Assembly (NCBI GenBank): GCA_046350735.1
Contig: JAXLZU010000001.1
Coordinates: 493,767 to 557,766 of the forward strand
Direction: 5' to 3'
Origin: Candidatus Saccharimonadota bacterium
GTDB lineage: Bacteria; Patescibacteriota; Saccharimonadia; CAILAD01; BJGX01
Length of the DNA stretch: 64,000 nucleotides
Under the pieces are notes generated by a model. It saw only the letters and a list, made by a program, of their open reading frames with translations. It ran no database searches and was not told where the DNA came from. The translations under genes and the position numbers were made by a program. Below are positions 7,457-46,152 of this stretch, one piece after another; position 1 is the first letter of the stretch; the number at the start of each line of letters is the position of its first letter.

Positions 7457-9157
7457 TTAGCTTTTGACTAGCGGTAAGGTAAAGGTAAATGTCGAGCCTT
7501 TGCCGGGTGCTGAATCTACCCAGATTCTCCCACCATACAGTTCTACAAGCGTACGGGCTATATAAAGACCTAGCCCTGTCCCTCCTACTTCGCGGGTCAT
7601 AGAATTATTTACTCGATAAAATTTTTCAAACATGTGTTTTTGCTCTTCAGCGGGAATACCAATGCCAGTATCTCTCACACTTACTTTTACATTATTTCTA
7701 TCACCAGTCAGTGTAAGGTCTACACTACCATTTTGCGTATACTTAATAGAATTGCTTACTAAGTTAGTAATAATCTCTCGTACTCTGTCTGGGTCGGCAT
7801 TTACTTTAAACTGAGGCGCTACTACTAGCTCGGTACCACTACCTGCTCCCTCGCTACCAATATGGCTATAAAAACTCAGACCCTTCTTCTTGGCGGCTAT
7901 TTCCATTTCTGAAGCAACCTGACTAACTAAGTCGGTCATGTTAAAGACCTGACGTTGGTCATTTAGCCTCTGGTCTTCTATCTTTGTAACAGAGAGTAAA
8001 TCTTGAAACAGTTTACCTAGGTGTAATGCAGAGTTGCGAGCCTTCTCTAGAAAGTTTTTGGCCCTATCATCTACAGTAGCTAAATTCGGATTCGTTGCCA
8101 TAGAAAGGTACCCCTCAATAGCTGCAACTGGCGTGCGCATTTCGTGGCTAGCAGTAGACACAAACTCATTTCGTTGCCTCTGAAGAGCTTTTTGCTCGGA
8201 GATATCATGAAACACCGCTATAGCGCCATTTATCTCATTTTGCATATCAAATGTTGGTGCCACTGAGATAGAAAAACTTATTTTGGCATTATTGTGGGTA
8301 AGAATATGAAACTCATCGGTGGTAAGTTGTTCGCCAGTACTAAATACCTTTAAGAATGGATTATTGGCCTTGGTGGTTTGATTATCGTTTGTATCTAGCA
8401 ACTTAATTACATTGCTAAATAATGTATTCTGAGCATCTTTGGTGCTCCAATTCGTCAAATCTTCTGCAGCAGAATTAAACAAAATAATTTCGAGCTTTTT
8501 ATTAACCCCAATTACTGGGTCGGCAATTGCAGCTAGCATAAGTCGCTCGCTTAGTTGGGTGCTATCGAGTTGATTGGTAATGGTAGTTGCTAGGTGTGAG
8601 GTCTCTACGTAATGATCGATTGCCCTGGCTACCAGCAAGCCAAAGATAATAGCAATAAGTGAGTAAAATATCTCTGGCAAGAATAGGTTGAGCTTGTTTG
8701 TATTTATTACATTGAGAATAATTGCCGCAACGACAAAAAATGCCAACGCACTACTACTTATTAAGCAGGCACGAGCTCCAAGAATACAGCTTGCCATTAC
8801 TAAGATAACCAGAACCGGAAAATACATAGAGGCTAGCCCACCACTTAGCAATACGCCAATAATTAAACATATAGCCACAAAACTCAGCGAAATATATGTG
8901 CTGCCAAAAGGATATCTACCCTCTATTTTGGGCCAGAGAAAGAAGTTATATATTACCCCAAGCAATGCAATTGGAATTACTGTGTAGGCAATGGGTATTC
9001 TGTTAGTAATATCAATATTCAAAACAGCCACCACAGCAAAAAACACAATTGTAGCGGCCAAACTAAGTGTTGTGGCTGAAAGCACAAAGGTTTGTAAGCT
9101 TCTGTCGTAGCTTTGTTTGGTGGGTTTGTTTACAGTAGTTACCGGGGAATTTTCCAC
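7457..9157 (-). CDS. Sensor histidine kinase, multi-TM sensor, PAS-like region, HisKA and HATPase_c
   Basis: About 6 N-terminal TM helices; H-box SHEMRTPVAAIEGY; N, G1 and G2 boxes (NLVSNSIKYT, DTGIGIP, GGTGLGL). Directly upstream of the receiver gene. Confidence 0.8.
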   Translation of the reverse strand: MENSPVTTVNKPTKQSYDRSLQTFVLSATTLSLAATIVFFAVVAVLNIDITNRIPIAYTVIPIALLGVIYNFFLWPKIEGRYPFGSTYISLSFVAICLIIGVLLSGGLASMYFPVLVILVMASCILGARACLISSSALAFFVVAAIILNVINTNKLNLFLPEIFYSLIAIIFGLLVARAIDHYVETSHLATTITNQLDSTQLSERLMLAAIADPVIGVNKKLEIILFNSAAEDLTNWSTKDAQNTLFSNVIKLLDTNDNQTTKANNPFLKVFSTGEQLTTDEFHILTHNNAKISFSISVAPTFDMQNEINGAIAVFHDISEQKALQRQRNEFVSTASHEMRTPVAAIEGYLSMATNPNLATVDDRAKNFLEKARNSALHLGKLFQDLLSVTKIEDQRLNDQRQVFNMTDLVSQVASEMEIAAKKKGLSFYSHIGSEGAGSGTELVVAPQFKVNADPDRVREIITNLVSNSIKYTQNGSVDLTLTGDRNNVKVSVRDTGIGIPAEEQKHMFEKFYRVNNSMTREVGGTGLGLYIARTLVELYGGRIWVDSAPGKGSTFTFTLPLVKS

Positions 9158-9187: not shown

Positions 9188-9916
9188 CTAGTACTTCTCT
9201 TTGTAGCCAGGGAACCAGTCTTGGTGGATGTTTTTTTCTGGCACGTTAATCTTTAACAAAATTTCTTTCATGCTATCTACCATTGGCTCGGGGCCAGAAA
9301 CAAATAGTTGTCTCTCTATGTAGTCTGGTACAGCTTTTTGAATAAGTGGTGCAGTTATATAGCCTGTATGGCCCTGCCAATTTGGTGGTTTAGATTCTGA
9401 AAGAACTTGCACTACCTTTAGATGGGGCATTACTGCCTCACATTGCTTAATAAGTCCGGCTGCTGGCTCTTCGTTGAGCGAGCGAACACCGTGCAGCAAT
9501 ACGATATTACGGCTGTACTCTTTGCTATCGAATAAATATTGCAATTGCGATATAAATGGCGTAACACCAATACCCCCTGCAATCCATAAAATATTGGCGG
9601 ATTTGGCTGGCAAAACAAAATCACCCATTGGGCCTTTTGCATCTAAAGTATCACCAGGCTTAAGGCCAAATAAGTCATCTTTAAATTCAGAATGTTGCTC
9701 TACAAGACGAGTAGTAATAATAATATCTGCCTGCGTTGGTGAGGCACTAATGGTAAACCAGCGTTGGTTTCCTCTCTCGTCAGGATTCGGATCGTCAACA
9801 GTAACTTCTAAATATTGGCCAGCCGTAAAGATAAACCCGCGCGGCTTTTTAAAGTGAAGTTGCCAGATATCTGCAGCAACATGATTACGACCAATAAATT
9901 CAAGTTTGATGTTCAT
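9188..9916 (-). CDS. FNR-like FAD/NAD(P)-binding oxidoreductase (ferredoxin reductase-type)
   Basis: RWFTISAS (RxYS-type FAD-binding motif) and GGIGVTPFIS NAD(P)-binding glycine motif; 242 aa. Confidence 0.6.
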   Translation of the reverse strand: MNIKLEFIGRNHVAADIWQLHFKKPRGFIFTAGQYLEVTVDDPNPDERGNQRWFTISASPTQADIIITTRLVEQHSEFKDDLFGLKPGDTLDAKGPMGDFVLPAKSANILWIAGGIGVTPFISQLQYLFDSKEYSRNIVLLHGVRSLNEEPAAGLIKQCEAVMPHLKVVQVLSESKPPNWQGHTGYITAPLIQKAVPDYIERQLFVSGPEPMVDSMKEILLKINVPEKNIHQDWFPGYKEKY

Positions 9917-9934
9917 CTGATATAATTATACCCT

Positions 9935-10975
9935 ATGAAAGACACAAAACCGTTAATTGAGCATAAAAAGATTCCTATAACTGTTATTCAGGGGTTTTTA
10001 GGTGCAGGCAAAACTACCCTACTAAATTACATCCTAAATCATAATCAAGGCATGAATATTGGCGTAGTAGTAAATGATTTTGGCGATATTAATATAGACA
10101 GTGAGCTAGTTAAGAGTAAAACCGATAAGAAGCTTGAGCTTACCAGTGGCTGCATTTGCTGTAGTCTTCAGACCCTCGATTTGCAAGAAGCTATTGATCA
10201 GTTTACGTACTCTGGCAGCAATATAGACTACATCATTATTGAAGCAAGTGGCTTAGCTGAGCCGAGGGATCTAGCTATGACACTCAAACAAACAATAGGT
10301 GTACGGGTGCGCTTAGATGGCATTGTAACTGTCTTAGATGCACACAATCTTACAGCAAATGCCAAAGACCATTCATCTATTGCGCGCGACCAATTGCTTT
10401 TTACCGACTTTGTGGTTATTAATAAAGTCGATTTGGCCAGTAAACAACAGCTTGGTGAGGTTCGAGACATGATAGCTTCTTTTAGCCCCAAAGCGCGAGT
10501 ACTCGAATCAGAAAACGGCAAAATTGATGTACGTCTAATTCTCGACCAAGACCAATATAAAGTCCGTAGCCAGTTAGAAAAAGACAAGGCAGATCATGAT
10601 CATAGGCATCATTCTCACTTGCACGAACACTACTCTACCTTCAGCTGGACTAGTCAAAAGCCACTCGACCCAATGAAGCTTCAAGAGTTTATTAACCGCA
10701 AAATTCCCGCTAATGTATATCGGGCTAAAGGCTTTATTGACTTTGGTACTAAGGGACATATGCGTAAATATATCTTTCAGCTGGTAGGCGCGCGCCCTGA
10801 GATAGTGTGGGAAAACTGGAAGAACGTTCGGCCAGAAACCAAGCTTGTATTTATTGGCCGTGATATAGATGAAGCTAAGATTTCTTCTGAGCTGAAAAAA
10901 TGTATTGATAGCGATCCGGATGGATCATTGCCTGAGGGCATCGAGCTACAATTGCCGCAAAAAGCCGAATTCTAG
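9935..10975 (+). CDS. COG0523 (CobW/ZigA/YeiR family) G3E metallochaperone GTPase
   Basis: P-loop GFLGAGKTTLLN; CxCC metal motif (GCICCS); His-rich stretch HDHRHHSHLHEH; C-terminal CobW_C-like region. Confidence 0.75.
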   Translation: MKDTKPLIEHKKIPITVIQGFLGAGKTTLLNYILNHNQGMNIGVVVNDFGDINIDSELVKSKTDKKLELTSGCICCSLQTLDLQEAIDQFTYSGSNIDYIIIEASGLAEPRDLAMTLKQTIGVRVRLDGIVTVLDAHNLTANAKDHSSIARDQLLFTDFVVINKVDLASKQQLGEVRDMIASFSPKARVLESENGKIDVRLILDQDQYKVRSQLEKDKADHDHRHHSHLHEHYSTFSWTSQKPLDPMKLQEFINRKIPANVYRAKGFIDFGTKGHMRKYIFQLVGARPEIVWENWKNVRPETKLVFIGRDIDEAKISSELKKCIDSDPDGSLPEGIELQLPQKAEF

Positions 10976-12282: not shown

Positions 12283-15009
12283 ATGACTTTTACAAATATA
12301 AAAAAACGTAATGGACAAGTAGTAGATTTTGATCGTAAACGGATCGAATTGGCTATATCTAAAGCCAACACAACAGTTGGTCAAGAAATTCCTGCAGGCG
12401 AGATTACCTTGCTAGTAGATAATGTTATTTCTCATCTAGAAAGCTTTACCCAAGATGCTGTACCAGAAGTTGAAACCATTCAAGACTTGGTCGAGCAAGA
12501 GCTGATGCGTGCAGACTACTTTAAGACTGCGCGATGTTATATTCTTTATCGAGAAGAACATAAGGCCATGCGCGAGCTCGAAGCCGAACGTAGTGCCGAA
12601 AAACTCGAGCATAATGCACTTAAAGTTACTCAGCCCGATGGTAGCGTTGAAAACTTTAGTTACTCACGGCTTATTACCGATCTTGTCGAAACAAGTAGTG
12701 GGCTCGAAGCTGATATTGATATTGATGAACTGGCTCAGTTAGCCAAGAGTAATCTATACGACGGCATTACCGTAGATGAGCTGCAAGAAGCGCTAATAAT
12801 GGCAGCCAAAACAAATATCGAAAAAGACCCTGCCTACTCTGCTTTGGCTGCGCGTTTACTTTTGCGTAAAATTTATCGTGAAGTACTCGGTGACGATAGT
12901 GAGGCTAATCTAAAAGAGGCTTACAAATCTACCTTTGTTAGTTTTGTTAAGGACAATGTCAAAGGTAATCGTCTAGACAAACACCTCTTAGAGTTCGACC
13001 TTGAAGCCCTAGCCGACTATATCGAACCTAAGCGAGATCACGAGTTTGACTATATGGGGCTCGATATGCTCTATGATAGATATTTTATGCAGATAGAAGG
13101 TCGCGGTACTCGTTTGGAAGCTCCGCAGATATTCTGGATGCGCATTGCTATGGGTCTCTCTATTCTTGAGAAGAAAACAGAAAAAGATGCCTCTGCCAAG
13201 AAGTTTTATGATGTGCTCTCAACACTGCGTTATGTACCATCTACTCCTACTCTTTTTCACTCAGGTACTACTTTTGCACAGCTTAGCTCTTGCTTCTTAA
13301 ATACTGTAGAGGACGATCTAAAACACATCTTTAAGGTATATCTCGACACTGCACTTATGAGTAAATTCTCTGGTGGTATTGCAACTGACTGGACAAACAT
13401 ACGTGCTACTGGGTCGCTTATTAAGAAAGTTAATATCCCTTCACAAGGTGTAATTCCCTTCTTAAAGATTGCTAATGATACAACAGTAGCTATTAGCCGT
13501 TCTGGTAAGCGCAAAGGTGCTACTTGTGTGTATTTAGAGACTTGGCATCTAGATATTGAAGATTTCTTAGAGTTGCGTAAAAACACTGGTGACGAACGTC
13601 GCCGTACTCACGATATGAATACTGCCAACTGGATACCCGACTTATTTATGAAGAGAGTCGAAGCCAATGCCGAATGGACGCTATTTTCTCCTAATGATGT
13701 ACCCGAGCTACACCATCTTTATGGTAAGGAGTTTGAGAAAAAATATGAAGAATACGAAAAGTTAGCCGACGAGGGTAAGGTAGAAATGTTTCGTCGTGTA
13801 CCAGCTGCTCAGTTATGGCGTAAGATGTTAACAATGCTATTTGAGACGGGTCATCCTTGGGTTACTTTTAAAGATCCATGTAATGTACGAAGTCCACAAG
13901 ATCATGTCGGAGTTATTCATAATTCAAATCTTTGTACCGAAATCACGCTAAATAACTCCAAAGAAGAAACAGCGGTATGTAATTTAGGCTCGGTTAATCT
14001 TGGTCGACATATAAGTGAAGGTAAGCTCGATCAAAAACTTATGGAAGACACTGTAATAACAGCAATGCGTATGCTAGATAATGTTATTGATATTAACTAT
14101 TACACAACTAAAGAGTGCGAAACATCTAATATGCGACACCGCCCTGTCGGGCTCGGCATAATGGGTTTTGCCGACGCTCTCTTTATGCTCAATATCCCAT
14201 TCAATTCAGAAGAAGCTGTTACGTTTGGCGATGAATCGATGGAGCTTGTGAGCTACTATGCAATTCTTGGCTCTAGCCAATTAGCCAAAGAAAAAGGTAA
14301 ATATAAGAGCTACAAAGGTAGTAAGTGGGACAGAGGCCTATTACCAGTCGATACTCTAGATCTTCTCGAACAAGAGCGGGGCCAGAAAATTGATGTAAAA
14401 CGCCGTGGCAAGCTAAACTGGAAAATTGTACGAGACCATGTAAAGAAATATGGTATGCGCAATTCTAACACTATGGCTATTGCTCCAACTGCATCTATAA
14501 GTAATATTTCTGGCTGTTACCCATGCATTGAGCCTATTTATAAAAACCTCTATGTTAAGTCGAATATGAGTGGTGACTTTACGGTGATTAATAGCTATCT
14601 TATAGAAGATCTTAAGAAGTTAAATATGTGGAACGAAGAAATGTTAAAGAAAATCAAGTTCCACGACGGATCTATTCAGAAAATAACTGAAATTCCACAA
14701 GAAATTCGTGCCAAGTATCAAGAAGTATTCGAAATCGACCCAGAGTGGCTCGTAAAAATTGCTGCCTACCGTGGTAAATGGATAGACCAAAGCCAAAGTC
14801 TAAATATCTTTGTACAAGGAGTATCCGGCAAAAAACTAAGCGATATTTATACGTATGCATGGAAAATGGGCTTAAAGACCACCTACTACTTGCGCTCATT
14901 AGCAGTTAGTCAGGTAGAAAAATCCACAGTAGATACGGCCGAGTTTGGGTCTACTCACAAACGCGAGTTTGCTACTGTTGCTGAGATGGCGCCGCAAAAA
15001 CAAGAATAA
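12283..15009 (+). CDS. nrdA: Class I ribonucleoside-diphosphate reductase alpha subunit with N-terminal ATP-cone
   Basis: ATP-cone (VVDFDRKRIELAISKA); long catalytic domain; strong SD ggggaggg before the ATG; followed by nrdB. Confidence 0.9.
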   Translation: MTFTNIKKRNGQVVDFDRKRIELAISKANTTVGQEIPAGEITLLVDNVISHLESFTQDAVPEVETIQDLVEQELMRADYFKTARCYILYREEHKAMRELEAERSAEKLEHNALKVTQPDGSVENFSYSRLITDLVETSSGLEADIDIDELAQLAKSNLYDGITVDELQEALIMAAKTNIEKDPAYSALAARLLLRKIYREVLGDDSEANLKEAYKSTFVSFVKDNVKGNRLDKHLLEFDLEALADYIEPKRDHEFDYMGLDMLYDRYFMQIEGRGTRLEAPQIFWMRIAMGLSILEKKTEKDASAKKFYDVLSTLRYVPSTPTLFHSGTTFAQLSSCFLNTVEDDLKHIFKVYLDTALMSKFSGGIATDWTNIRATGSLIKKVNIPSQGVIPFLKIANDTTVAISRSGKRKGATCVYLETWHLDIEDFLELRKNTGDERRRTHDMNTANWIPDLFMKRVEANAEWTLFSPNDVPELHHLYGKEFEKKYEEYEKLADEGKVEMFRRVPAAQLWRKMLTMLFETGHPWVTFKDPCNVRSPQDHVGVIHNSNLCTEITLNNSKEETAVCNLGSVNLGRHISEGKLDQKLMEDTVITAMRMLDNVIDINYYTTKECETSNMRHRPVGLGIMGFADALFMLNIPFNSEEAVTFGDESMELVSYYAILGSSQLAKEKGKYKSYKGSKWDRGLLPVDTLDLLEQERGQKIDVKRRGKLNWKIVRDHVKKYGMRNSNTMAIAPTASISNISGCYPCIEPIYKNLYVKSNMSGDFTVINSYLIEDLKKLNMWNEEMLKKIKFHDGSIQKITEIPQEIRAKYQEVFEIDPEWLVKIAAYRGKWIDQSQSLNIFVQGVSGKKLSDIYTYAWKMGLKTTYYLRSLAVSQVEKSTVDTAEFGSTHKREFATVAEMAPQKQE

Positions 15010-15038: not shown

Positions 15039-16073
15039 ATGCCAGTTAAGATGACCAAAGTAAGACCAGACGTAAATAAGCGCCGTATTATTAACGGTGA
15101 AGATGCTGATGTAATTCAACTGCACCCCATGAAACATAGCTTTGCATGGGACGCTTATCTAGCCGGTAATGCCAACCACTGGCTACCGACAGAAATTGCT
15201 ATGCAAGATGATATAGAACTGTGGAAGTCCCCTCGCCTTTCTGATGACGAACGATTAGCATTTAAGACTGCTCTTGGGTTTTTTACAACTGCCGATAGTA
15301 TTGCTGCCAATAACTTAGTGCTGGCATTTTATAAGCATGTTACAAGCCCAGAATGTCGTATGTATCTGCTTCGTCAGGCTTTCGAAGAAGCCATTCATAC
15401 TCATGCCTATCAATATATTGTGGAGAGCTTAGGTATAGATGGTGGTGAGGTATTTAATATGTACCGCGAAAATACCGCTCATAATTCAAAGGCCAATTTT
15501 ATTCTTGGCTTTAATGAAGGTATTTTTGATGATAATTTTCATACCGGTACATTCGAAAACGATCAGAAATTTTTAGAAAATCTTTGTGTGTTCTCGCTAA
15601 TTCTAGAAGGTATATTTTTTTACAGTAGTTTTGCGGTAATATTCGGGTTTCAGCGTCAAAATAAACTAGTTGGTTCTGCCGAGCAGATTCAATACATTAT
15701 GCGCGACGAATCTCAGCATCTTAACTTTGGTATTAATATGATAAATGCCATAAAGGAAGAACAGCCAGAACTATGGAATGATGAATTCCAGAAACGAATT
15801 ATTAATTTAGTAAAAGAAGCGGCAAAATTAGAGTATAGCTATGCTCAACAGGTGTTTCCGAAAGGTATTTTTGGGATGAATTCGGATGGATTTAAGCAAT
15901 ATATTGAGCACATTGCAGATAGACGCCTTAGCGCCGTGGGTCTGCCAAAGCAGTTTAATGTTAAGAATCCATTCCCCTGGATGAGTGAAGCAGTAGACCT
16001 TTCTAAAGAAAAGAACTTCTTCGAAACTCGTGTTACTGAGTATCAAACAGGCGGCACACTTAGCTGGGATTAA
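15039..16073 (+). CDS. nrdB: Class I ribonucleotide reductase beta subunit (di-iron/tyrosyl radical)
   Basis: Ferritin-like iron ligands (EEAIHTHAY, DESQHLNF) and conserved Tyr region. Confidence 0.9.
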   Translation: MPVKMTKVRPDVNKRRIINGEDADVIQLHPMKHSFAWDAYLAGNANHWLPTEIAMQDDIELWKSPRLSDDERLAFKTALGFFTTADSIAANNLVLAFYKHVTSPECRMYLLRQAFEEAIHTHAYQYIVESLGIDGGEVFNMYRENTAHNSKANFILGFNEGIFDDNFHTGTFENDQKFLENLCVFSLILEGIFFYSSFAVIFGFQRQNKLVGSAEQIQYIMRDESQHLNFGINMINAIKEEQPELWNDEFQKRIINLVKEAAKLEYSYAQQVFPKGIFGMNSDGFKQYIEHIADRRLSAVGLPKQFNVKNPFPWMSEAVDLSKEKNFFETRVTEYQTGGTLSWD

Positions 16074-16192: not shown

Positions 16193-17101
16193 TTACATGG
16201 TAGCAAGCTGAGTATATAGCTCTAAAGTATGCTTCGCATTTGGTTCAATATTTATTTCTGCTAAAGCCTGTTCTGCTGGTGCCCAAATGTAGTCTTGGGC
16301 TTCATTATTTAATTTTACTTTTTTAGAATTTACCTGAGCAACGTAGTCTACAAACATATGATGTACGTAATCTTGGTAATAACCAGAGTTCTTAATTTGG
16401 TCGAAAGTAGCAATATGCTGGCCTATATTAGCATTCAGACCAGTTTCTTCGTTAATTTCTCGTACCAATGTCTGATGTAATCGCTCGCCTCGGCGTACTT
16501 TACCACCTACTATCGAATATTTACCACCCCATTTGTGTGTCTTAACTAAAAGAATTTCGGGTAGGCTCGTAGAGTTTGCTTGGTATTCAATAATTCCACC
16601 TGCAGCTACCACCGATCCTGGCCCGACTAATTTTTGCATCATTTTGTAAAGTTTTGATTTAGTAGTGGTCGAGCTTGCATGCGGAAGCAACCCGTTACTT
16701 ACTATGCTTTCAGCTAGATTTTGTGGACTAATAATATTTGAGTTCGGCACATAGACTGGTAAGTCTTTTGGTTTGTGGCTAAAATAACATGGCACGTTTA
16801 GACTAAGTGCTATGCCAAGTTCGAATGCTGCACTACGGCCAATGTAGCCACCAGGATTAACAAAATAGCTAAAACCATTGGGTGCCAGCTTGTGTAAGTT
16901 GTGCAAATATCTTAGCTCTACAAAACGCGGGTCTAACCCCTCCTCTTGCTCTAGCAGTAAAAAGCTTCCATTTATTGCAGTAATCTCTAGTGGGTCTGGC
17001 GCCACAATTTTTATGCCAGCAGTTTTGAAGGTATTAGCAGCCGATCGAATATCTTCGAAGTGTCTGCCAAAGCTACCATGCAGCACTGCTTTATATTTCA
17101 T
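16193..17101 (-). CDS. Fusion protein: N-terminal LOG/nucleoside 2-deoxyribosyltransferase-like (SLOG-fold) domain + C-terminal NUDIX hydrolase
   Basis: C-terminal Nudix box GGKVRRGERLHQTLVREINEETGL. N-terminal about 150 aa carry PGGYIGRSAAFELG, resembling the PGGxGTxxE / DxGTxFExG motif of LOG and NDT/DNPH1 families. Confidence 0.65.
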   Translation of the reverse strand: MKYKAVLHGSFGRHFEDIRSAANTFKTAGIKIVAPDPLEITAINGSFLLLEQEEGLDPRFVELRYLHNLHKLAPNGFSYFVNPGGYIGRSAAFELGIALSLNVPCYFSHKPKDLPVYVPNSNIISPQNLAESIVSNGLLPHASSTTTKSKLYKMMQKLVGPGSVVAAGGIIEYQANSTSLPEILLVKTHKWGGKYSIVGGKVRRGERLHQTLVREINEETGLNANIGQHIATFDQIKNSGYYQDYVHHMFVDYVAQVNSKKVKLNNEAQDYIWAPAEQALAEINIEPNAKHTLELYTQLATM

Positions 17102-17103
17102 AT

Positions 17104-18522
17104 CTAACTAATTATTTTTGTAATTCGTTTTAGCGATTCTTCTTTACCAAGTGTGGCGAGTATATCGAATAAGCCAGGTGCTTGCTCGCGACCTGTTAAG
17201 CTAATACGAATAACAGAAAATAATTGCCCTGTCTTAATACCAAGTTTTTCAACCAAATCTCTTAGATCTTTCTCTAAAGCATCATGTTGAAAACTATTAT
17301 TTTCTAATACGTTTACAGTTTCTTCTAACCAAAGCTTAATATCAGCAAGTGATTCCTTTTTACAAAGAAGTTTTGTATCTACTTTTGGAGTCTCAAAGAA
17401 TATTTCCATTACAAACTTGGCTTCATCTAGTCGCTTTAGTCGGTCTTTATCTAGATTTAGTACCTTTTCGAAATATGATTGGTTGGCGTACCATTCGGCT
17501 GGTACAAATGGTCGTACTTTTTCACTTAGATCAGATATAGAAAGTTTACGAATGTATTCCCCATTCATCCAGTCGAGTCGTTCTAGATCAAACCGGGCTG
17601 GTGACTTTTGCAATCGGCCCAAATCAAACTTGGCAATTAGCTCATCAAGGTTGAAAATTTCCTGCTCACTGCCATCGTTCCAGCCTAGAAGTGCTAAAAA
17701 GTTAACTAGGGCTTCTTTGAGATATCCTTTGGATTCGTATTCGAGTACATCCACATCACCATCTCGCTTACTTAACTTCTTTTTACCATCTGGGCCTAGA
17801 ATTGGTGGCAAGTGTACAAACTTTGGTTCTTTCCAGCCGAGCACTTTATATAATAATACGTGCTTGGCCGTACTGCTGAGAAACTCATCACCTCTAATAA
17901 CATGACTTATCTGCATTAAATGGTCATCAACTACGTTAGCGAAGTTATAGGTTGGGTAGCCGTCAGCTTTCATGATGATGAAGTCGTCAATCAGATTATT
18001 GTTGGTTTCAAAACTACCACGAATTTCGTCATGCCATTTAGTGCTACCTGTACTAACTTTTAGCCGAATTGGCAAACCTGTAGTGTCACCTGATGTCTTG
18101 GGCTCCATAGTGTACTTGTATACAAACGGACGTTTGGCTGCAATTGCTTCTTCACGCAGTGAAGAGAACGCCTCTGGCGTAATAGCCGAATAGTATGCTA
18201 AGCCCTTCTCCACTAGCTCTATGGCATATTTTTCATAATGTGGCAGCCGCTCTGATTGAATATACGGACCAACTTCACCGAGCTTTGGCTCGGTTTCATA
18301 CCATACACCTTCATCTGGGTGAAGACCAATCCAGTCAAGACTCTTAATAATCTGTTCTACGCCTTCGGCAACAAAACGCTCTCTATCAGTATCTTCAAGG
18401 CGTAAAATAAATTCACCATTATTTGCTTTGGCAAATACATAGTTAAATAGTGCGGTGCGCACCCCACCAATATGTAATAGCCCAGTTGGGCTGGGTGCAA
18501 ATCGAGTTCTTACTTTATTCAT
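17104..18522 (-). CDS. gltX: Glutamate--tRNA ligase
   Basis: RFAPSPTGLLHIGG (HIGH motif) and KLSKRDG (KMSKS). Likely start is the ATG encoding MNKVRTRFAPSP at 18522; the ORF track extends 22 codons further upstream. Confidence 0.9.
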   Translation of the reverse strand: MNKVRTRFAPSPTGLLHIGGVRTALFNYVFAKANNGEFILRLEDTDRERFVAEGVEQIIKSLDWIGLHPDEGVWYETEPKLGEVGPYIQSERLPHYEKYAIELVEKGLAYYSAITPEAFSSLREEAIAAKRPFVYKYTMEPKTSGDTTGLPIRLKVSTGSTKWHDEIRGSFETNNNLIDDFIIMKADGYPTYNFANVVDDHLMQISHVIRGDEFLSSTAKHVLLYKVLGWKEPKFVHLPPILGPDGKKKLSKRDGDVDVLEYESKGYLKEALVNFLALLGWNDGSEQEIFNLDELIAKFDLGRLQKSPARFDLERLDWMNGEYIRKLSISDLSEKVRPFVPAEWYANQSYFEKVLNLDKDRLKRLDEAKFVMEIFFETPKVDTKLLCKKESLADIKLWLEETVNVLENNSFQHDALEKDLRDLVEKLGIKTGQLFSVIRISLTGREQAPGLFDILATLGKEESLKRITKIIS

Positions 18523-18548
18523 AACGCCAATTATACCAGATTGGCTAA

Positions 18549-18887
18549 CTAATCGCTCATCATTTCTTCTGGTGAAATTTCGTTCCAATATCCATCAGGC
18601 ATTTGTCGATAAAAAACAATTTTTTTGCTTGTTTCTTCGCTGTCGTATATATACTCTACATAGTCAGCCGGCCCGCGGTGGTGATAAATGGTTTTCTTAT
18701 CGAGAATAGCTGGGCTTTCGATATTGTCTATTCTGTACTTGATATTATCTTTCTCAAATTCTATTCGCTCAATAGCCCTCTTATACTTTGGGTTATCAGG
18801 TAACTGCTCTGTAAATTTGTCTCTAACATCAATAGTATACATATCGTCGATACGCATTGTTAACTCGTCCCAGTTTTTTTCGTTCAT
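18549..18887 (-). CDS. Hypothetical small acidic protein
   Basis: 112 aa ORF; ATGA start/stop overlap with the upstream zinc-ribbon membrane protein gene suggests co-transcription. Confidence 0.4.
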   Translation of the reverse strand: MNEKNWDELTMRIDDMYTIDVRDKFTEQLPDNPKYKRAIERIEFEKDNIKYRIDNIESPAILDKKTIYHHRGPADYVEYIYDSEETSKKIVFYRQMPDGYWNEISPEEMMSD

Positions 18888-20413
18888 AAGCTGGTAGCCA
18901 TGCGAATAAGTTGATCTTGGCTAAGGTTGGTATTATCACCTTCAATTCGATACCAGGTGCCATTATTAACCCAGCTAGCTTGATTACCATACACGTAAAT
19001 AGTTAGTCCGGCAGCTTGCAGTGAGAGATATTTATCAGACTTATTACTAACATAGTTTTCAGCTAAGGCTTGGCTATCCCAGTCAGTTTTACTCTCATTA
19101 ACAGTAGCTGAGGCTTTGCCGTCTGCAGACCCTATTTGATAAGAGATGGTACCAGGGCCAGAGCTGATATTATTTGAAACCTGCCAACCATTAGGTAGGT
19201 AGCCAGGCATACTTGCATTTATACCAGCTTTTGAGCTAGCGACTTTGAGGGCTAAGTTAGGATAATTAACTTGCCAAACATAGGCTCCAAGAAGTAATAG
19301 ACCAGCCATGGTAAGAGTTACTGTGGCAGCTTTGGCACTTTTTTTGCCAAGCGAAGATTTCTTCTTAGCAACAGGCATTGGCTCATCTGGCACTCCTGGT
19401 AAACCTGTAGATGGGTTCTCGGTGAGTGTATTTGACTGTGGCTCAATTACACCTGGTGTAGTTGTAGAGGCCGAAGCAGCAACTGTATTAATACTATCTG
19501 GGTTAAGTACAGGTTGTGTAAGAGGTTGAGCCACTGGTGCTTGAGCAGGTGGTGAAGGGGTTTGTGGTGATGCGGTAAATGTAGTTACTTGAGTGGGTGC
19601 AAGAGTTGGTGTAGCTACTGATCTAATTGTATCCATAGGCACAACTACTGGAGGTGTAGACGGCTTTGTAGAAAGCTCTTGTACTGCCGCTGGGCGTTCA
19701 TTGTCTGAATTTGCCAATAGATTGAACTGATCATCTGAGAATACATGCTCATCTTTACTATCGAGGGATGCAAGTTCGCTACTCTGTGTATGTGTGTCTG
19801 GCAGATTGTCTGGTGTGTTTGACGAAGACTGTGTCATCGAATCAACAGCTGGGTTGCTAGTTTGTGGTACTGCTACCGATGGAGTCTGAGGTACCAAAGT
19901 ATTTGCAGGATTATTTGCAACAGGGCGTAAATCGGTAATATTAGCTGAAGGAGTAAATTTATTAATCGAGGACGATACTGGTGCTGCAGTGGGTTCTGGT
20001 GTGGGAGTAGGAGGTGTGGCCGGTGGCGTGGTGGCAGCAGGAGTATCCATTACCCAAGGAGTTGTAGATTGGCTATTAGTTGATGGTGGAGTATTTGTAT
20101 CTGGTGATTTGGTGGTAGCAGTTGTAGGTTCGGCTGGTTTGCCAGAAAGGCTGGCTGTTAGACTACTTACAATGTCATCTCCATTTGTTGAGGCAGTGCT
20201 GGTAGGACTAGAGCTTGACACATCGGTACTGGGCGCCATGCCAATGCTTGGTTGAAGGTTGTTGCTCGAATGGCTAGGTGCTGCACCACCTACAACTCCT
20301 TCATTACCACTAGCAGAAGCTGCAGCAGTACCACAATTAGCACAAAACGTTTTGCCGGCTATGCTAATTTGATCACTAGAGCTACAGTTTTGACAATTAT
20401 CAGATAAATTCAT
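18884..20413 (-). CDS. Membrane protein with N-terminal cytoplasmic zinc-ribbon, long Ser/Thr/Pro-rich linker, single TM helix and C-terminal extracytoplasmic domain
   Basis: CxxC...CxxC (CQNCSS...CANCGT) in the first 30 aa; about 300 aa low-complexity linker; TM ATVTLTMAGLLLLGAYVW; about 140 aa C-terminal domain. Confidence 0.55.
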   Translation of the reverse strand: MNLSDNCQNCSSSDQISIAGKTFCANCGTAAASASGNEGVVGGAAPSHSSNNLQPSIGMAPSTDVSSSSPTSTASTNGDDIVSSLTASLSGKPAEPTTATTKSPDTNTPPSTNSQSTTPWVMDTPAATTPPATPPTPTPEPTAAPVSSSINKFTPSANITDLRPVANNPANTLVPQTPSVAVPQTSNPAVDSMTQSSSNTPDNLPDTHTQSSELASLDSKDEHVFSDDQFNLLANSDNERPAAVQELSTKPSTPPVVVPMDTIRSVATPTLAPTQVTTFTASPQTPSPPAQAPVAQPLTQPVLNPDSINTVAASASTTTPGVIEPQSNTLTENPSTGLPGVPDEPMPVAKKKSSLGKKSAKAATVTLTMAGLLLLGAYVWQVNYPNLALKVASSKAGINASMPGYLPNGWQVSNNISSGPGTISYQIGSADGKASATVNESKTDWDSQALAENYVSNKSDKYLSLQAAGLTIYVYGNQASWVNNGTWYRIEGDNTNLSQDQLIRMATSL

Positions 20414-39879: not shown

Positions 39880-41139
39880 TTATCGAGATTTGTTAACTTT
39901 GGTGGTAACTAAACCTTTTTTACTTTTACGATACGCACGGGTAAATCCGGCAAGTCCGGTCATACCAAGAGCAGCAGCCAAGCCAGACTCCATACCAGTT
40001 GCTGGCAAACTAGGTGAGCCAGGAGTTGGTGTAGGAGTTGGGGTTGGAGGAATTGGAGTTGGTGTAGGCGTTGGGGTTACTACATTGGCAGTATCACAAA
40101 CTGGGAATGGTTCTTCGTTAGAACGAACACATGCACTATTTGTAAATGTACCAGTTGCATCAGGCTTTACAGTTACCTGCATCAGCACGTAGCCATTTAC
40201 CTTTGCGGTGTAGTCGCCAACACTTTGGCCACCAGCAGTAAAGAGCGTATTGTCTGGCAATGCCATACCATTTGGGTTCTCGGTATTGTAGAGCTTAATC
40301 GTACCTGGGATAAGCTGCACTTGAGCAGGTAATTTATCGGTTAGGGCAAGATTGTGCTGTACAACGTTTGCTGAGTTGTTAAAGTCGATTTTGTAGTATA
40401 GTCTATCACCTGGTTTAGCTTCTACAGATTTTGCAAAAGCCTGACTAGGATGAGCAACTGTCTTAGTAATTGCAAGCGGAACAGCTTCTACTTTTACTTT
40501 AACAATTACATACTCGGCATACTCAAAACATCCTGGAATGTTACCATCAGCTTGGTTTTCACCAATTAATGCACCGGTAGTAACAATACTATCAGAGAGC
40601 TTTAAGTTAGCATTTTGGCGGGTAACGGCATGAGCCGAACCAGCAACATAGCTAAGATGGAATGGTGTACCATTAGCACTTTTAAACTCGGTGGTGTCAA
40701 ACACACTGCCTGGTTGTGCATTCGATGCACTAATCTGACTAACTGCATTCATAGCAGTACCAACTGTACTGGGTAGTTGGATTTTAACTGTCGTATTACG
40801 GGCTACACCCGGACCATCAAAGTTGGCACCGTTTAGGTTGGGGCCAGCGTTGTTGTGTACATATGTACGCAAGTAAATTTCTTGTCCAGGTTGTACATTT
40901 TGTACGTCTGTATAGGTAGGATTAGCACTTTGGGCGCTATCGAAGAATTCTGTTTCGTTACCATACCCTGGGGTATTGTAAAACGAGTTAAAGGTTACAT
41001 GATCAAAGCCTGGGGTATTTGGACCGTCCCATTTACGGGTTTCTCGGTTAGGATACCAACCAGCAATGGTCATAAGCGGCGCTGCAATGGCAACAAGGGT
41101 TGCAAGTGAGGCCAAACCTATCTTGGTTGCGAGTTTCAT
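39880..41139 (-). CDS. LPXTG-anchored cell-surface protein (sortase substrate)
   Basis: N-terminal signal peptide; beta-rich body; PT-repeat linker (PTPTPTPIPPTPTPTPTP); LPATG followed by a hydrophobic segment and basic tail RAYRKSKKG. Confidence 0.7.
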   Translation of the reverse strand: MKLATKIGLASLATLVAIAAPLMTIAGWYPNRETRKWDGPNTPGFDHVTFNSFYNTPGYGNETEFFDSAQSANPTYTDVQNVQPGQEIYLRTYVHNNAGPNLNGANFDGPGVARNTTVKIQLPSTVGTAMNAVSQISASNAQPGSVFDTTEFKSANGTPFHLSYVAGSAHAVTRQNANLKLSDSIVTTGALIGENQADGNIPGCFEYAEYVIVKVKVEAVPLAITKTVAHPSQAFAKSVEAKPGDRLYYKIDFNNSANVVQHNLALTDKLPAQVQLIPGTIKLYNTENPNGMALPDNTLFTAGGQSVGDYTAKVNGYVLMQVTVKPDATGTFTNSACVRSNEEPFPVCDTANVVTPTPTPTPIPPTPTPTPTPGSPSLPATGMESGLAAALGMTGLAGFTRAYRKSKKGLVTTKVNKSR

Positions 41140-41300
41140 AAAAAACTCCTTTCATTGGTTAAAAAATTGGCACTGTTTTGACAAACTCCAATTAATATTT
41201 CAAAGATCGTGCGTTCGCTATAAATAATATCATACATAAGCGCTTATGTCAATACTTTTTATGGTAGTTTATTATCGAGAGTATATCTGTTAAATTTTTC

Positions 41301-41338
41301 ACAAAAAGAAAAGCCCCCTACCGAATTTCGGTAGGGGG
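41301..41338 (-). terminator. Rho-independent terminator downstream of the 41357-42298 gene
   Basis: Perfect 10-bp stem ccccctaccg / cggtaggggg with loop aattt (41314-41338); on the minus strand followed by cttttctttttgt. Confidence 0.6.
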
Positions 41339-41356
41339 TATAAGGTTTTGTCACAC

Positions 41357-42298
41357 TCAGGCGGGTGCCGTCGGTGGTGAAGTAATGGGCACTGACACTG
41401 TCGGCTGCGGTTGAGGCAGTGGTGCCGGCGGCGGAAGAACCGTCGATGGCGGCGTAACAGTGACAGTCGGCTGCGTAGAATCCGGCGGGCGTGGCGTCGG
41501 CGGACCCACCCCAGGCTGACAGGGACGGGCCGGATCGGCACACTGCGCCGGTGTAGGCGGCACATACGGCTTACAGCCCTGCGGGACCGTACATGTCACG
41601 ATAGAAGTAGTGGTTGTAGACGGTAGTGGTGGCGGTGTCGTCGTCGGAACACAATCACTCTTACAGCCGGGCGTTGGAGTCGGTCCACCACTGGGTGGTG
41701 GGCCACCAGGTACCTCTGGAGGAGGCGGAAACTGTCCCACGGGCTGATAGCCGCAGTCGAGCTTGTAGTTCCACTCGCTCCCATCCGGGCACGAGAAGCG
41801 CAACACCTGGTAACTCGGTCGGTCAGGATCGGCTGGGTAGCTCGACGGAATCGGCTGAGTGCCACGCATATACATCGTCTGATACGGACCAGACATGTCC
41901 ACCACCGAAGCAGAACACTTCGCCTCTGCGGCTTCCATCATGCCGACGGCACCTGCCCAAGAGGCACGGTCGTTGACATAGTTGTTGGTCGCATCGAGCA
42001 TCGACTCGGTAGAGGCATATGCCCTCGACTGATATGCGGCGTGCTGCGCTACCAGAGCGGGGTCGCTACAACGACGGGTGTGCAACTCGGCCTTGGCAGC
42101 ATCCACCTCGGTGGGGGCAGCAGGACCGTTGTTGTCAACATCTACCTTATAGCGATAGTAATCCACCGTAGAAGCGCACTCACCAGCTGGCGGTCCACCG
42201 GGTGGCGGCTGCGCGTCCACTCGTGCCACAATGGGCACGATGAGGAGCAGTGCCACTACTGCCGCCAAACTAAAACCAAGCAAAAATCGCCTTCGCAT
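41357..42298 (-). CDS. Secreted Cys- and Pro-rich hypothetical protein (GC-rich gene)
   Basis: Real start ATG at 42298 gives MRRRFLLGFSLAAVVALLLIVPIVARVDAQ signal peptide. Mature protein has paired Cys and a PT/P-rich C-terminus. The ORF-track N-terminal 133 codons are an upstream read-through. Confidence 0.5.
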   Translation of the reverse strand: MRRRFLLGFSLAAVVALLLIVPIVARVDAQPPPGGPPAGECASTVDYYRYKVDVDNNGPAAPTEVDAAKAELHTRRCSDPALVAQHAAYQSRAYASTESMLDATNNYVNDRASWAGAVGMMEAAEAKCSASVVDMSGPYQTMYMRGTQPIPSSYPADPDRPSYQVLRFSCPDGSEWNYKLDCGYQPVGQFPPPPEVPGGPPPSGGPTPTPGCKSDCVPTTTPPPLPSTTTTSIVTCTVPQGCKPYVPPTPAQCADPARPCQPGVGPPTPRPPDSTQPTVTVTPPSTVLPPPAPLPQPQPTVSVPITSPPTAPA

Positions 42299-42388
42299 CT
42301 GATCTGTATTCAAGGTACATCCTTCCTTTTCGGGAACTTGGGAACAGGACACTTTCTCACATACCATATATGAGAAAGTCGCTATTAG

Positions 42389-42433
42389 CAAGAAAAAAAT
42401 CTCTGGTGGGGGTCTTTTGCAAGACCCCCACCA
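42389..42433 (-). terminator. Rho-independent terminator downstream of the 42454-43182 gene
   Basis: Perfect 13-bp stem tggtgggggtctt / aagacccccacca with loop ttgc (42404-42433); a T7 tract follows on the minus strand. Confidence 0.65.
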
Positions 42434-42453
42434 GGACAAAAAAGTGAGAAAAA

Positions 42454-43182
42454 TTACTGGGCAGCCGCTGCCGGTGCATTGCCAGCTTGGCCAGCGTTGG
42501 CTGGAGCTGGTGCCGGTGCCGGTGCCGGCGGAGCTGCAGGCAACTCGAGCGTCGGCGCAGGTGCCGGTGCCGGATTGGCAGCAGCATTGGCCGGCGGAGC
42601 CGCATCGGCGCGATTCTGGCCGCGGTTGACGACAAAACTCAGCACGAAGGCAAGAGCAAACATCAACACCACACCACAGGCAGTAGAAACAATCCACATT
42701 CGTGCCGGGTCGGCCGGGATATCCACAATCAACTTGTTCTGAGCATCAGCGAAGTGCTTGCCCAGACCGTACTGCTCGAACACCCAGAAGTACCAGAACG
42801 GAATCGAAACGAGACCAATCACAAACGAGACCAGCATCACCATCGCCCAGTCAACACGGTCGCCCATGCGCTCGAAGATGGCAATAAACCAGTTATCATG
42901 GGTGGCGATCTGCTGATCGTGACGATCAACATGGGTCGCAGTGGTCTCATGCGCCTGGCGGAGCATGTCCTGCTGCTGGCCCTGACGATCAACCAGACCA
43001 GTCAAATCACCCAAATGGGTCTCAACCACATCAACACGACCCTCAAGTGCGCCAATCTGTGCACCCTGAGCCTGAAAACGACGACCAACTGCCTGATTGT
43101 GCGCGTGCTGTGCCCGATCACGGGCCTCGACACGCTCAGCAATACGGCGCAAATTGGCTTGAATTCGCTCTGCCTCTGTCAT
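42454..43182 (-). CDS. Hypothetical membrane protein: N-terminal coiled-coil, two TM helices, Ala/Pro-rich C-terminal tail (GC-rich gene)
   Basis: ATG at 43182 with GGAGA SD; heptad N-terminus; TM helices MVMLVSFVIGLVSIPFWYFWVF and IVSTACGVVLMFALAFVLSFVV; tail PAPAPAPAPA. Confidence 0.5.
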   Translation of the reverse strand: MTEAERIQANLRRIAERVEARDRAQHAHNQAVGRRFQAQGAQIGALEGRVDVVETHLGDLTGLVDRQGQQQDMLRQAHETTATHVDRHDQQIATHDNWFIAIFERMGDRVDWAMVMLVSFVIGLVSIPFWYFWVFEQYGLGKHFADAQNKLIVDIPADPARMWIVSTACGVVLMFALAFVLSFVVNRGQNRADAAPPANAAANPAPAPAPTLELPAAPPAPAPAPAPANAGQAGNAPAAAAQ

Positions 43183-43275
43183 TCTATTTGTTCTCCTCTA
43201 TCGGGGACTAGAAGGTACCGCGTACGTGTCACAACCTAAGTTATGCCACGTAGTAAGACTTCTATAAGTAAAGCT

Positions 43276-43305
43276 GGCAGAGGTGGGTGTTACCCCACCC
43301 CTGCC
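43276..43305 (-). terminator. Probable terminator downstream of the 43319-44209 gene
   Basis: 12-bp stem ggcagaggtggg / cccacccctgcc (one mismatch) with loop tgttac; weak T-run on the minus strand. Confidence 0.45.
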
Positions 43306-43318
43306 GAAAAAAGAGATA

Positions 43319-44209
43319 CTAGCTATCGAGTAGCTCGACCAAGCTGCGACAACCCTTCACAAACCAATCATCATCAAGATCACTCAGAGGGTCAGCAGGG
43401 TCGACAGTGATGTACTCGAGGCCAGTCACCGGCGAGGAGTCATCAGTCTGCAGACTGTCATCGGTCGGGTCGGCCTTTGCGGTCGGCTTTGCATCGCCTT
43501 CACCCAACCCGTTGCCAGGCTCTTCGTAATCGAACGGCTTCTTGTCGTCTGGCTTAGAAACGCTTTGCAGCGCCTCAGCAACCTTCTTACGTGAAACCAT
43601 AGTCTTGGCATTACTGCCCTTAGCTGCATCAGCAAGAGCCAGTACATCAACTACGGTACACTTCAGAAAGGCTGCCAACTCACCAGCAGCAACCAAATCG
43701 GCATCGACATCCGGCTTCGGTTCGACGTACTCGCGCGGAGTGATATCGTTCCAGGCCAACTTACCCTGCAAGAAGCTTCTCACCTGCGCATTCAAATTAG
43801 CATAATCAACTCGCTTGCCATCTCGCTTGAGCTCGCAACGGCGATACACCAAGCCACTCAAGACACGAACGACAGCAATAATGGGTAGATCCTGCTGATT
43901 GCTCAGCGTAATAACCAGCATTTGTGTTTCAGCATCTGACGCCGCAATGGCATCGAGAGCTGGTGAGATCTGACGGTCAAACTTGCGCAAGTCAGTAGGG
44001 TCAGCACTAGCAATCGCAGTCAGCACCAAGCTAATTGAGTCAGATACCGCACTGGCTTCAGAATCATCATCAGCAGCAGCTTCATCGCCCTGACTATCTG
44101 CATCATCTGTGTGTTCGTCAGAAGCATCCGGCCTTGACTCATTCAGAACTTCATCAAAAGCCTTGCTGAGATCATCATCATTCAAACCAAGATCATCATC
44201 AGCCATCGT
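43319..44209 (-). CDS. Hypothetical highly acidic protein (GC-rich gene)
   Basis: Probable start ATG (MADDDLGL) at 44209 preceded by aagaagagagagg SD; the track start is an upstream TTG. Asp/Glu-rich termini, central alpha-helical core. Confidence 0.45.
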   Translation of the reverse strand, partial: TMADDDLGLNDDDLSKAFDEVLNESRPDASDEHTDDADSQGDEAAADDDSEASAVSDSISLVLTAIASADPTDLRKFDRQISPALDAIAASDAETQMLVITLSNQQDLPIIAVVRVLSGLVYRRCELKRDGKRVDYANLNAQVRSFLQGKLAWNDITPREYVEPKPDVDADLVAAGELAAFLKCTVVDVLALADAAKGSNAKTMVSRKKVAEALQSVSKPDDKKPFDYEEPGNGLGEGDAKPTAKADPTDDSLQTDDSSPVTGLEYITVDPADPLSDLDDDWFVKGCRSLVELLDS

Positions 44210-44267
44210 TGCCTCTCTCTTCTTTCGGTTCAAGGAACCTGGTTACCGGAATTGATAACCAAGTAAT

Positions 44268-44317
44268 TAAATCGAAAAAAAACTTGGTGTTGGGGCACCC
44301 TCGCACCCCAACACCAA
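44268..44317 (-). terminator. Rho-independent terminator downstream of the 44329-45618 gene
   Basis: Perfect 12-bp stem ttggtgttgggg / ccccaacaccaa (44284-44317); a T8 tract follows on the minus strand. Confidence 0.6.
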
Positions 44318-44328
44318 ACACAATTACG

Positions 44329-45618: not shown

Positions 45619-45801
45619 ATTACTACGCTCAGAGCTCCACTCAGAAATTACAAGAAGTAAAAAAAACTATGCATCTATCACTAGATCTTTTGTACTAAAG
45701 TAATTGTAATGTAAACATTTCTACAAAGCTTTTAACAAAACCTCATCAGGTATGATGGTACTACAAAAACTTAAAAAAGTCAATAGTTTTTAACAGGAAT
45801 A

Positions 45802-46146: not shown

Positions 46147-46152
46147 CCTTTG

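Follow-up and report, generated by a model that had tools for sequence, protein, structure and literature searches.

An open reading frame (ORF) at 16193..17101 on the minus strand of a 64,000-nucleotide stretch of Candidatus Saccharimonadota DNA (contig JAXLZU010000001.1, positions 493,767 to 557,766; this whole stretch is called the window below) encodes a complete protein of 302 amino acids plus stop, in which an N-terminal domain (N-domain) related to the nucleoside 2-deoxyribosyltransferases (NDT) and to DNPH1 is joined through a helical linker to a NUDIX hydrolase domain. This uncharacterised fusion can be interpreted as a combination of known modules, its N-glycosidase-type domain being a divergent one, and the only existing annotation of its family is 'NUDIX domain-containing protein'. 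The chances that it acts as a bifunctional nucleotide-dismantling enzyme were judged to be about even; such an enzyme would convert a (deoxy)nucleoside triphosphate, (d)NTP, to the monophosphate, (d)NMP, and pyrophosphate (PPi), and then the (d)NMP to the base and (deoxy)ribose-5-phosphate.

The joining of the two domains is far beyond chance, because 683 full-length fusion homologs were found and invariant residues occur in both halves. The best 120 homologs covered 97-100% of the query, except for a few truncated entries; the best single match was 97% identical to it, the closest group lay at 71-77%, and a broad plateau followed at 53-57%. An alignment of 40 fusion members, to which all counts out of 40 given below refer, showed 62 invariant columns spread across both halves. 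The source names and titles of 80 loci showed that the family is spread, with identities above 50%, over many lineages of Patescibacteria, or candidate phyla radiation (CPR), namely Saccharibacteria, Paceibacterota, Giovannoni-, Yanofsky-, Nealson-, Zambryski-, Terry-, Uhr- and Daviesbacteria and WWE3, and the protein of the window groups with Saccharibacteria-labelled contigs. A distinct group of whole-fusion homologs with 41-43% identity (loci L073-L077) was found in DPANN archaea (Woesearchaeota, Nanoarchaeia). The contig of L074 is genuinely archaeal, since a Cbf5/dyskerin-type pseudouridine synthase is also encoded there (L074:8077-9009), and the DPANN homologs suggest that the gene is shared between the domains of life, by CPR bacteria and DPANN archaea. 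At least 104 matching stretches were confirmed among 185,579 species genomes by a pattern-based scan, which gives a lower bound on the distribution; in the viral contigs scanned no relative of the fusion family was found. Some record titles ('Gammaproteobacteria' and 'Methanosarcinales' on binchicken metagenome-assembled genomes) are probably coarse or wrong labels. A survey of the fusion across genomes had been proposed in an earlier reading of the DNA made without database searches (the sequence-only reading below), and its outcome, with homologs in many Patescibacteria lineages and in DPANN archaea, was positive.

The C-terminal half (residues 164-302; 16196..16612, minus strand) is a NudI-like NUDIX hydrolase domain. 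The Pfam NUDIX model PF00293 matched residues 182-293 with E 6.8e-15 and 55.7 bits, against a cut-off of 21.1. The Nudix box, which extends from G200 to L222 in the translation (16436..16504, minus strand), reads GKVRRGERLHQTLVREINEETGL and fits the canonical GX5EX7REUXEEXGU exactly, its residues being G200-KVRRG-E206-RLHQTLV-R214-E215-I-N-E218-E219-T-G-L. In the 40 homologs G200, E206, R214, E218 and E219 were invariant and E215 was present at 90% or more. A profile score above threshold, the Nudix alpha/beta/alpha fold and an intact box are thus found together, as expected of a member of the PF00293 superfamily, and the sequence supports the view that this half is catalytically intact. The two-domain fusion with a canonical Nudix box, as claimed in the sequence-only reading, is therefore real and the box is a family-wide feature.

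For all 20 members compared, NudI (NCBIfam NF012016) was the closest characterised NUDIX relative, with a best E of 4.9e-13; MutT1 and NudG came next, and the C-terminal half aligned over the whole domain with NudI PDB 6dt3 (E 1.4e-9). The Nudix box has the same form as that of NudI (the E. coli nucleoside triphosphatase YfaO) and of MutT-type enzymes. The members scored 40.8-43.2 bits against the NF012016 equivalog cut-off of 95 bits, and the fusion family differs from NudI in its own invariant motifs (THKW, TFDQIKNSGYY and IEPNA) as well as in the extra N-terminal domain. As judged from these scores, NudI is the nearest family but not an ortholog.

The N-domain comprises residues 1 to about 137 (16691..17101, minus strand); its alpha/beta core is flavodoxin-like, and a beta-hairpin is inserted at residues 40-50. 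It is followed by the helical linker of residues 138-163 (16613..16690, minus strand), in which the AlphaFold2 (AF2) model contained helices at 144-147 and 150-159 with a predicted local distance difference test (pLDDT) score of 72-83; the mean pLDDT of the full-length model was 84. Whole-protein searches of Pfam, NCBIfam, PHROG, PADLOC and PDB sequences returned the NUDIX half only, the PADLOC match being the Nudix-level PDC-S07, and PF05014 did not match the query itself at E<=10. The relationship emerged from the fold and from the relatives of the domain. In a Foldseek search with the N-domain the top 16 PDB matches were all NDTs, with a weak E of about 0.01 and a probability up to 0.99. 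A profile search of 1.84 billion cluster representatives gave 878 N-domain relatives, among which standalone proteins with a length of 130-180 amino acids are numerous. When 63 sequences (the query domain and 62 relatives) were compared with Pfam, 38 matched PF05014 (best E 2.4e-6) and five matched PF15891; in the multidomain relatives PF05014 matched 10 of 62, with a best E of 6.4e-8. By hhalign the broad-family profile matched the single sequence of human DNPH1 with E 3.1e-4 and a small DNPH1 profile with E 8.2e-5 and a probability of 61%. The human DNPH1 sequence used was confirmed by ten residue numbers (PMC10603095) and by DNPH1-named entries 99-100% identical to it.

Four independent lines of evidence support the placement of the N-domain in the NDT/DNPH1 superfamily; the domain has the flavodoxin-like NDT fold, and its nearest structural neighbours belong to the NDT family. 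This superfamily is the 'DrHyd' of Aravind's scheme and the sister of SLOG/LOG (PMC9503650). The N-domain is a divergent branch of it and not a canonical NDT or DNPH1. The top-scoring match of the N-domain profile, P0121, is a repetitive protein of 7,573 residues that resembles adhesins; its 43 matched stretches are weak and the family motifs are absent from it. It was rejected as a relative, its rank being an artefact of summed repeat scores.

The catalytic triad of the superfamily is represented in LlNDT by Y7, D72 and E98. In human DNPH1 it consists of Y24 (the Tyr at the end of beta1), D80 (the Asp of alpha3) and E104 (the Glu nucleophile), and the phosphate is held by S98 and S128' (PMC10603095). 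The predicted nucleophile of the N-domain is E94 (codon 16820-16822). It lies in the 'NPxGYIGxSxxxELG' loop and helix start at P83-G96 (16814..16855, minus strand, from the translation), where residues 83-96 read PGGYIGRSAAFELG and where P83, G85, Y86, G88, S90, E94 and G96 are the only conserved positions in the 40 homologs. Both E94 and G88 were conserved in 63 of 63 members of the N-domain family. The two hhalign runs aligned E94-L-G with the nucleophile stretch E104-L-G of DNPH1 and G88 with G100, and a weak hidden Markov model (HMM) alignment placed E94 on the Glu in 'TGTAWELG' of NDT 6evs. In the DNPH1/MilB-type (d)NMP N-glycosidases the 5'-phosphate pocket comprises a small residue at -6 and a Gly at -4 from the Glu, together with a basic residue of the beta1 loop (PMC10603095, PMC4081090). 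Relative to DNPH1, the N-domain has two additional residues, K89-S90, where the Glu helix starts, and Y86 is aligned with S98. The retention of a catalytic Glu in the N-terminal half, predicted in the sequence-only reading, is borne out by this alignment and by the conservation, whereas a canonical NDT/DNPH1 active site is not, because the triad Tyr and Asp are missing from their aligned positions.

About 20 residues of the N-domain are invariant in the fusion family, and the 40-member alignment includes among them H8-G9-S10-F11, D57, E62, Y65, G76-F77-S78, P83, G85-Y86, G88, E94, C105, D113 and P115. The beta1-loop motif H8-G9-S10-F11-G12-R13-H14 (17060..17080, minus strand, from the translation; family consensus GSF[RG]K[H]) showed G9 and S10 in 62 of 63 members, F11 in 50 and a Lys or Arg at position 13 in 58. 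In the beta1 loop of MilB, P-F22-R23, the Phe stacks on the base and the Arg touches the phosphate (PMC4081090). By likeness to this loop and to G27-S28-I29-R30 of DNPH1, F11 is predicted to stack on the base and the basic residue to contact the phosphate. Other conserved acids of the N-domain are D57, D/E53 and D/E113. The residues D113, P115 and Y117 after beta5 are invariant and occupy, as far as monomer models allow the comparison, the same region as the neighbouring-subunit residue that completes the active site in NDT homo-oligomers.

Since the triad Tyr and Asp do not occur at the aligned positions, the acid/base function would be supplied from elsewhere, with D57, E62, D/E53 and D113 as candidates, or the chemistry differs. 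E62 lies one helical turn upstream of Y65; it does not vary in the fusion family, and 61 of 63 members have E or Q there. E62 and D57, one or two turns upstream of Y65, may substitute for the triad Asp. In the superfamily a Tyr at the triad position excludes the 2'-OH and a Phe there makes the enzyme ribo-specific, as in MilB, AvNRT and the Y5F variant of TbPDT (PMC4081090, PMC7308715), and the F17Y substitution in MilB reverses the preference from CMP to dCMP (PMC4081090). The absence of the 2'-OH-excluding Tyr is compatible with ribonucleotide substrates, which the N-domain may accept. By these alignments the domain appears to have kept the nucleophile Glu and a phosphate-friendly basic beta1 loop and to have lost the canonical Tyr/Asp pair.

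The strongest functional clue comes from the partners with which the N-domain is joined in other proteins. Among the 62 multidomain relatives the partner was NUDIX in 13, MazG in nine, a MazG-like domain in one and NTPase_I-T, which is the YjjX-type ITPase/XTPase, in one; the remaining ones include SMEK_N, LOG and NrtR winged-helix (NrtR-WHD) combinations. Nine of ten relatives of about 250 amino acids consist of the N-domain at 1-140 and MazG at 170-240, which is the same layout as in the fusion with a different pyrophosphatase, and two such MazG fusions bear the Joint Genome Institute (JGI) name 'NTP pyrophosphatase (non-canonical NTP hydrolase)'. In P0193 the order is reversed, the N-domain following NUDIX and both motifs being intact, and in P0194 NTPase_I-T precedes the N-domain. 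NUDIX, MazG and NTPase_I-T are structurally unrelated and have in common the reaction NTP -> NMP + PPi. Fusion of the N-domain with an NTP pyrophosphatase has thus arisen repeatedly and with three unrelated folds, and because these fusions recur, the idea of the sequence-only reading that pyrophosphohydrolase and N-glycosidic chemistry are combined in one protein is plausible and has independent support. The contigs of MazG fusions that were looked up offered uninformative gene contexts, and the names of the cluster members were generic labels only. The N-domain was also seen at the C-terminus of SMEK_N proteins of about 760 amino acids (P0186, P0268), a context typical of conflict systems, and apparent tandem duplications of it occur in proteins of about 325-345 amino acids (P0150, P0158, P0161, P0165, P0171, P0180, P0228 and P0243).

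The two folds, the intact Nudix box, the conserved Glu, the distribution of the family and its recurrent fusions to NTP pyrophosphatases are observed; which substrates are used, which reaction comes first, whether the base is released by hydrolysis instead of being transferred, and what the protein does in the cell are inferred. In the first step the NudI-like NUDIX half would convert a (d)NTP, canonical or non-canonical and of the ribo or deoxyribo series, to (d)NMP and PPi. In the second, E94 of the N-domain would attack C1' of the (d)NMP with formation of a covalent E94-ribosyl intermediate, the products being the free base and (deoxy)ribose-5-phosphate. In sum, a nucleotide would be taken irreversibly out of the pool; this would amount to the sanitation of non-canonical nucleotides, the recovery of base and pentose phosphate, or both. 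In mammals separate enzymes precede DNPH1 in the sanitation of non-canonical nucleotides.

The arrangement resembles that of the phage enzymes DmtZ and DutZ, in which an NTP-hydrolysing module is coupled, and sometimes fused, to a base-removing module of the NDT superfamily (PMC12884076). The NDT-like DmtZ of Z-genome phages cleaves dAMP to adenine and deoxyribose-5-phosphate (dR5P) and can also transfer dR5P to another base, and its gene lies beside that of DutZ, a dATP- and dGTP-hydrolysing enzyme, or is fused to it (PMC12884076). The differences are that DutZ has a dUTPase-like fold, whereas a NUDIX fold is present here, that DmtZ keeps the triad Tyr and an Asn, and that the phage enzymes serve Z-genome biosynthesis, whereas the fusion is a cellular gene of Patescibacteria and DPANN. 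DNPH1/Rcl, the 2'-deoxynucleoside 5'-phosphate N-hydrolase of PF05014, differs from the N-domain in having Tyr24 and Asp80, whose places are taken here by V6 and Y65, and in lacking the K89-S90 insertion before the Glu helix, the beta-hairpin insert at 40-50 and the NUDIX fusion; the sequence of the N-domain is moreover below Pfam detection. Among the CMP/hmCMP N-glycosidases of the NDT family (MilB, BlsM, BcmB), MilB is a standalone enzyme of antibiotic biosynthesis that keeps Asp78, and the sequence similarity of these enzymes to the N-domain is undetectable.

Several observations weigh against the dismantling of nucleotides by this protein, and they concern both the assignment of the N-domain and the context of the gene. 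No match to residues 1-160 was found in Pfam, NCBIfam, PHROGs, PADLOC or PDB sequences, even when they were searched as a 27-sequence profile, and the links by which the domain was placed are weak and partly transitive: the PF05014 matches on relatives are mostly below the gathering cut-off of 28.8 bits, the hhalign probabilities against DNPH1 of 39-61% represent a weak sequence-profile link, and the broad-family profile gave only sub-significant matches with PDB sequences (6evs E 0.83, PycTIR E 0.59). At the position of the triad Asp (D80 of DNPH1) both hhalign and the 6evs HMM alignment place the invariant Y65. The position of the triad Tyr falls on V6 by an inferred motif register (G9-S10-F11 = G27-S28-I29) that lies outside the hhalign alignment; all 40 fusion proteins have V or I at position 6, and the invariant H8 is nearby. 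The predicted template modelling (pTM) score of the full-length AF2 model is 0.56, which leaves the relative orientation of the domains uncertain, and substrate channelling can therefore not be claimed. Across 80 loci carrying fusion homologs there was no conserved partner gene, no neighbouring family occurring in more than eight, and no pathway is supported by the neighbourhoods. Finally, in the tables of transposon sequencing (Tn-seq) data for Southlakia epibionticum, the only or closest cultivated Saccharibacterium with such data, no fusion ortholog was found; small NUDIX genes stand there by themselves, and there are NDT-like genes of other kinds (PMC10633639, Table S2). Two proteins of this organism, SEML1_0813 and SEML1_0356, are a standalone NDT-like/DUF4406 protein and a fusion of a Ppx/GppA-like (RNase H-fold) domain with an NDT-like one, the latter being another phosphatase-NDT pairing in the same phylum.

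The alternative that survives best, although it is unlikely, is that the N-domain is a transferase which exchanges bases on (deoxy)nucleosides, as NDTs do, or on (d)NMPs, as DmtZ does, and so rebalances the salvaged pool, the NUDIX half feeding (d)NMP donors to it. The nearest structural neighbours of the N-domain are indeed transferases (6evs, 7o62, 1f8x, 1s2d), DmtZ combines hydrolase and dR5P-transferase activities in one NDT-like enzyme (PMC12884076), and the host lineages, Patescibacteria and DPANN, have no de novo nucleotide synthesis and rely on host-derived nucleotides (PMC10633639). However, the Asp/Asn with which NDTs bind the 5'-OH is absent, G88 and Y86 standing at the aligned positions, and the beta1 loop has a basic residue as in the NMP hydrolases. 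Since the Tyr7/Asp72/Asp92 set of the classical NDTs of types I and II (6evs, 1f8x) is missing from the N-domain family and phosphate-suited basic residues are present, a transferase acting at the nucleoside level is not expected. For the choice between transfer and hydrolysis as such the sequence is neutral.

The processing of NAD+ and ADP-ribose was considered next and is improbable. The N-domain would then cleave the nicotinamide-ribose bond of NAD+ or nicotinamide mononucleotide (NMN), with ADP-ribose or NAD(H) as the substrate of the NUDIX half. Some DrHyd members are NADases or ADP-ribosyl cyclases (PMC9503650), and P0235 consists of the N-domain, NUDIX and an NrtR winged helix, a domain combination linked with the regulation of NAD. 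Many fusion members are also auto-annotated by JGI as 'ADP-ribose pyrophosphatase YjhB', but this name is a generic one taken from a COG. The best scores of the NUDIX half are those against NTP-type enzymes, whereas ADP-ribose-type models are far weaker on it (NadM-type ADP-ribose pyrophosphatase, 1e-3 to 1e-6) and the match of NAD diphosphatase spans the Nudix box only; the alternative partners MazG and NTPase_I-T act on NTPs and not on ADP-ribose.

A comparably low likelihood was assigned to a non-catalytic N-domain, which would be a nucleotide-sensing, regulatory or oligomerisation module controlling an ordinary house-cleaning NUDIX enzyme. A ligand-sensing function is sometimes found in TIR, DrHyd and SLOG domains (PMC9503650), and only one residue of the canonical triad, the Glu, is in place here. 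Yet the Glu and the glycine-rich loop are invariant in all 63 diverse members and in every architecture examined, as is typical of an active site, and the number of invariant N-domain residues in the fusion family argues in the same direction.

A place for the N-domain among the LOG-family (SLOG) nucleotide phosphoribohydrolases is extremely improbable: the superfamilies are sisters and PGGYIGRSAAFE has a superficial likeness to PGGxGTxxE, but the domain reads P83-x-G85-Y-I-G88-x-S-x-x-x-E94, the second Gly being replaced by Glu in most homologs and the Thr being absent, and membership was rejected because PF03641 did not match, no LOG structure was among the top structural matches and PGGxGTxxE was not in register. 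The 'PGG' motif on which the sequence-only reading relied is accordingly not conserved, position 84 being Glu in 22 of 40 homologs; of its assignment of the N-terminal half to a LOG/NDT-like group, the NDT/DNPH1 part was upheld by Foldseek, by PF05014 on relatives and by hhalign, and the LOG part had to be abandoned. P0244 carries the N-domain beside a bona fide LOG domain with PGGFGTLAE, so the two motifs are distinct. LOG/PpnN catalyses the analogous reaction, NMP -> base + ribose-5-phosphate, in a related Rossmannoid fold class; it belongs to a separate superfamily, and neither its motif nor a sequence or top-ranked structural match was found in the N-domain.

If the fusion does dismantle nucleotides, it would bear on the way in which Patescibacteria and DPANN clean, rebalance or burn scavenged nucleotides, which is poorly known. 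The N-terminal half is invisible to Pfam, and its recognition as NDT/DNPH1-type leads to a concrete biochemical hypothesis, NTP -> NMP -> base + pentose phosphate. The module of pyrophosphatase plus N-glycosidase, of which Z-genome phages and, with two separate enzymes, mammals have furnished the characterised examples so far, would be extended to cellular organisms. A divergent branch of the NDT superfamily with a non-canonical catalytic set is also of possible interest for the NDT biocatalysis of nucleoside analogues. A more far-reaching view, which we consider quite unlikely, is that the fusion is the signature enzyme of an unrecognised nucleotide-harvesting route common to Patescibacteria and DPANN, the two radiations of ultra-small symbionts, in which scavenged NTP would be converted to base and ribose-5-phosphate within one polypeptide and would feed the pentose-phosphate/fermentative core, or that the N-domain is a natural phosphoribosyl/phosphodeoxyribosyl transferase which swaps bases; in either case a new residue set (H8, D57, E62, Y65 and D113) would replace Tyr/Asp.

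In the window the fusion ORF begins with ATG and ends with a stop codon at 16193-16195. The genes nrdA (12283-15009, plus strand) and nrdB (15039-16073, plus strand) lie on the opposite strand in convergent orientation, with 119 bp between the two stop codons, and the fusion gene is consequently outside the nrdAB operon. The gene gltX, for glutamyl-tRNA synthetase (17104..18588, minus strand), is located upstream on the same strand; its TAG stop is separated by only 2 nt from the ATG of the fusion gene, so that the two are probably co-transcribed. It is part of the context and not a functional partner. No promoter, terminator or Rfam element of note was seen flanking the fusion gene. In the 79 other loci nrdAB adjoined a fusion homolog in only three, all close relatives of the window, and gltX was upstream in only two (L001, L035), also close relatives. 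A functional link with nrdAB or gltX was therefore rejected as local synteny, the sharing of these partners being limited to a few close relatives; the adjacency to nrdAB to which the sequence-only reading attached importance exists physically and has lost its functional meaning.

Some further features of the window may be mentioned. Upstream of nrdAB there are genes for a CobW/HypB/UreG-family metallochaperone GTPase (9935-10975, plus strand), an FAD/NAD-binding oxidoreductase (9188-9916, minus strand), which is a possible flavodoxin/ferredoxin reductase-like partner of ribonucleotide reductase, and a PAS histidine kinase (7457-9157, minus strand). A 509-residue protein encoded at 18884-20413 on the minus strand contains an N-terminal Cys-rich zinc-ribbon-like motif, a transmembrane segment, a very long Pro/Thr/Ser-rich low-complexity region and a weak C-terminal match with DUF4367. 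At 39883-47799 on the minus strand there is an island of elevated guanine-plus-cytosine content (0.45-0.60 against a background of about 0.40), in which six consecutive large ORFs had no Pfam match at E<=1e-5 and encode Ala/Pro/Asp-rich, low-complexity or coiled-coil-like products; this island may be an acquired element.

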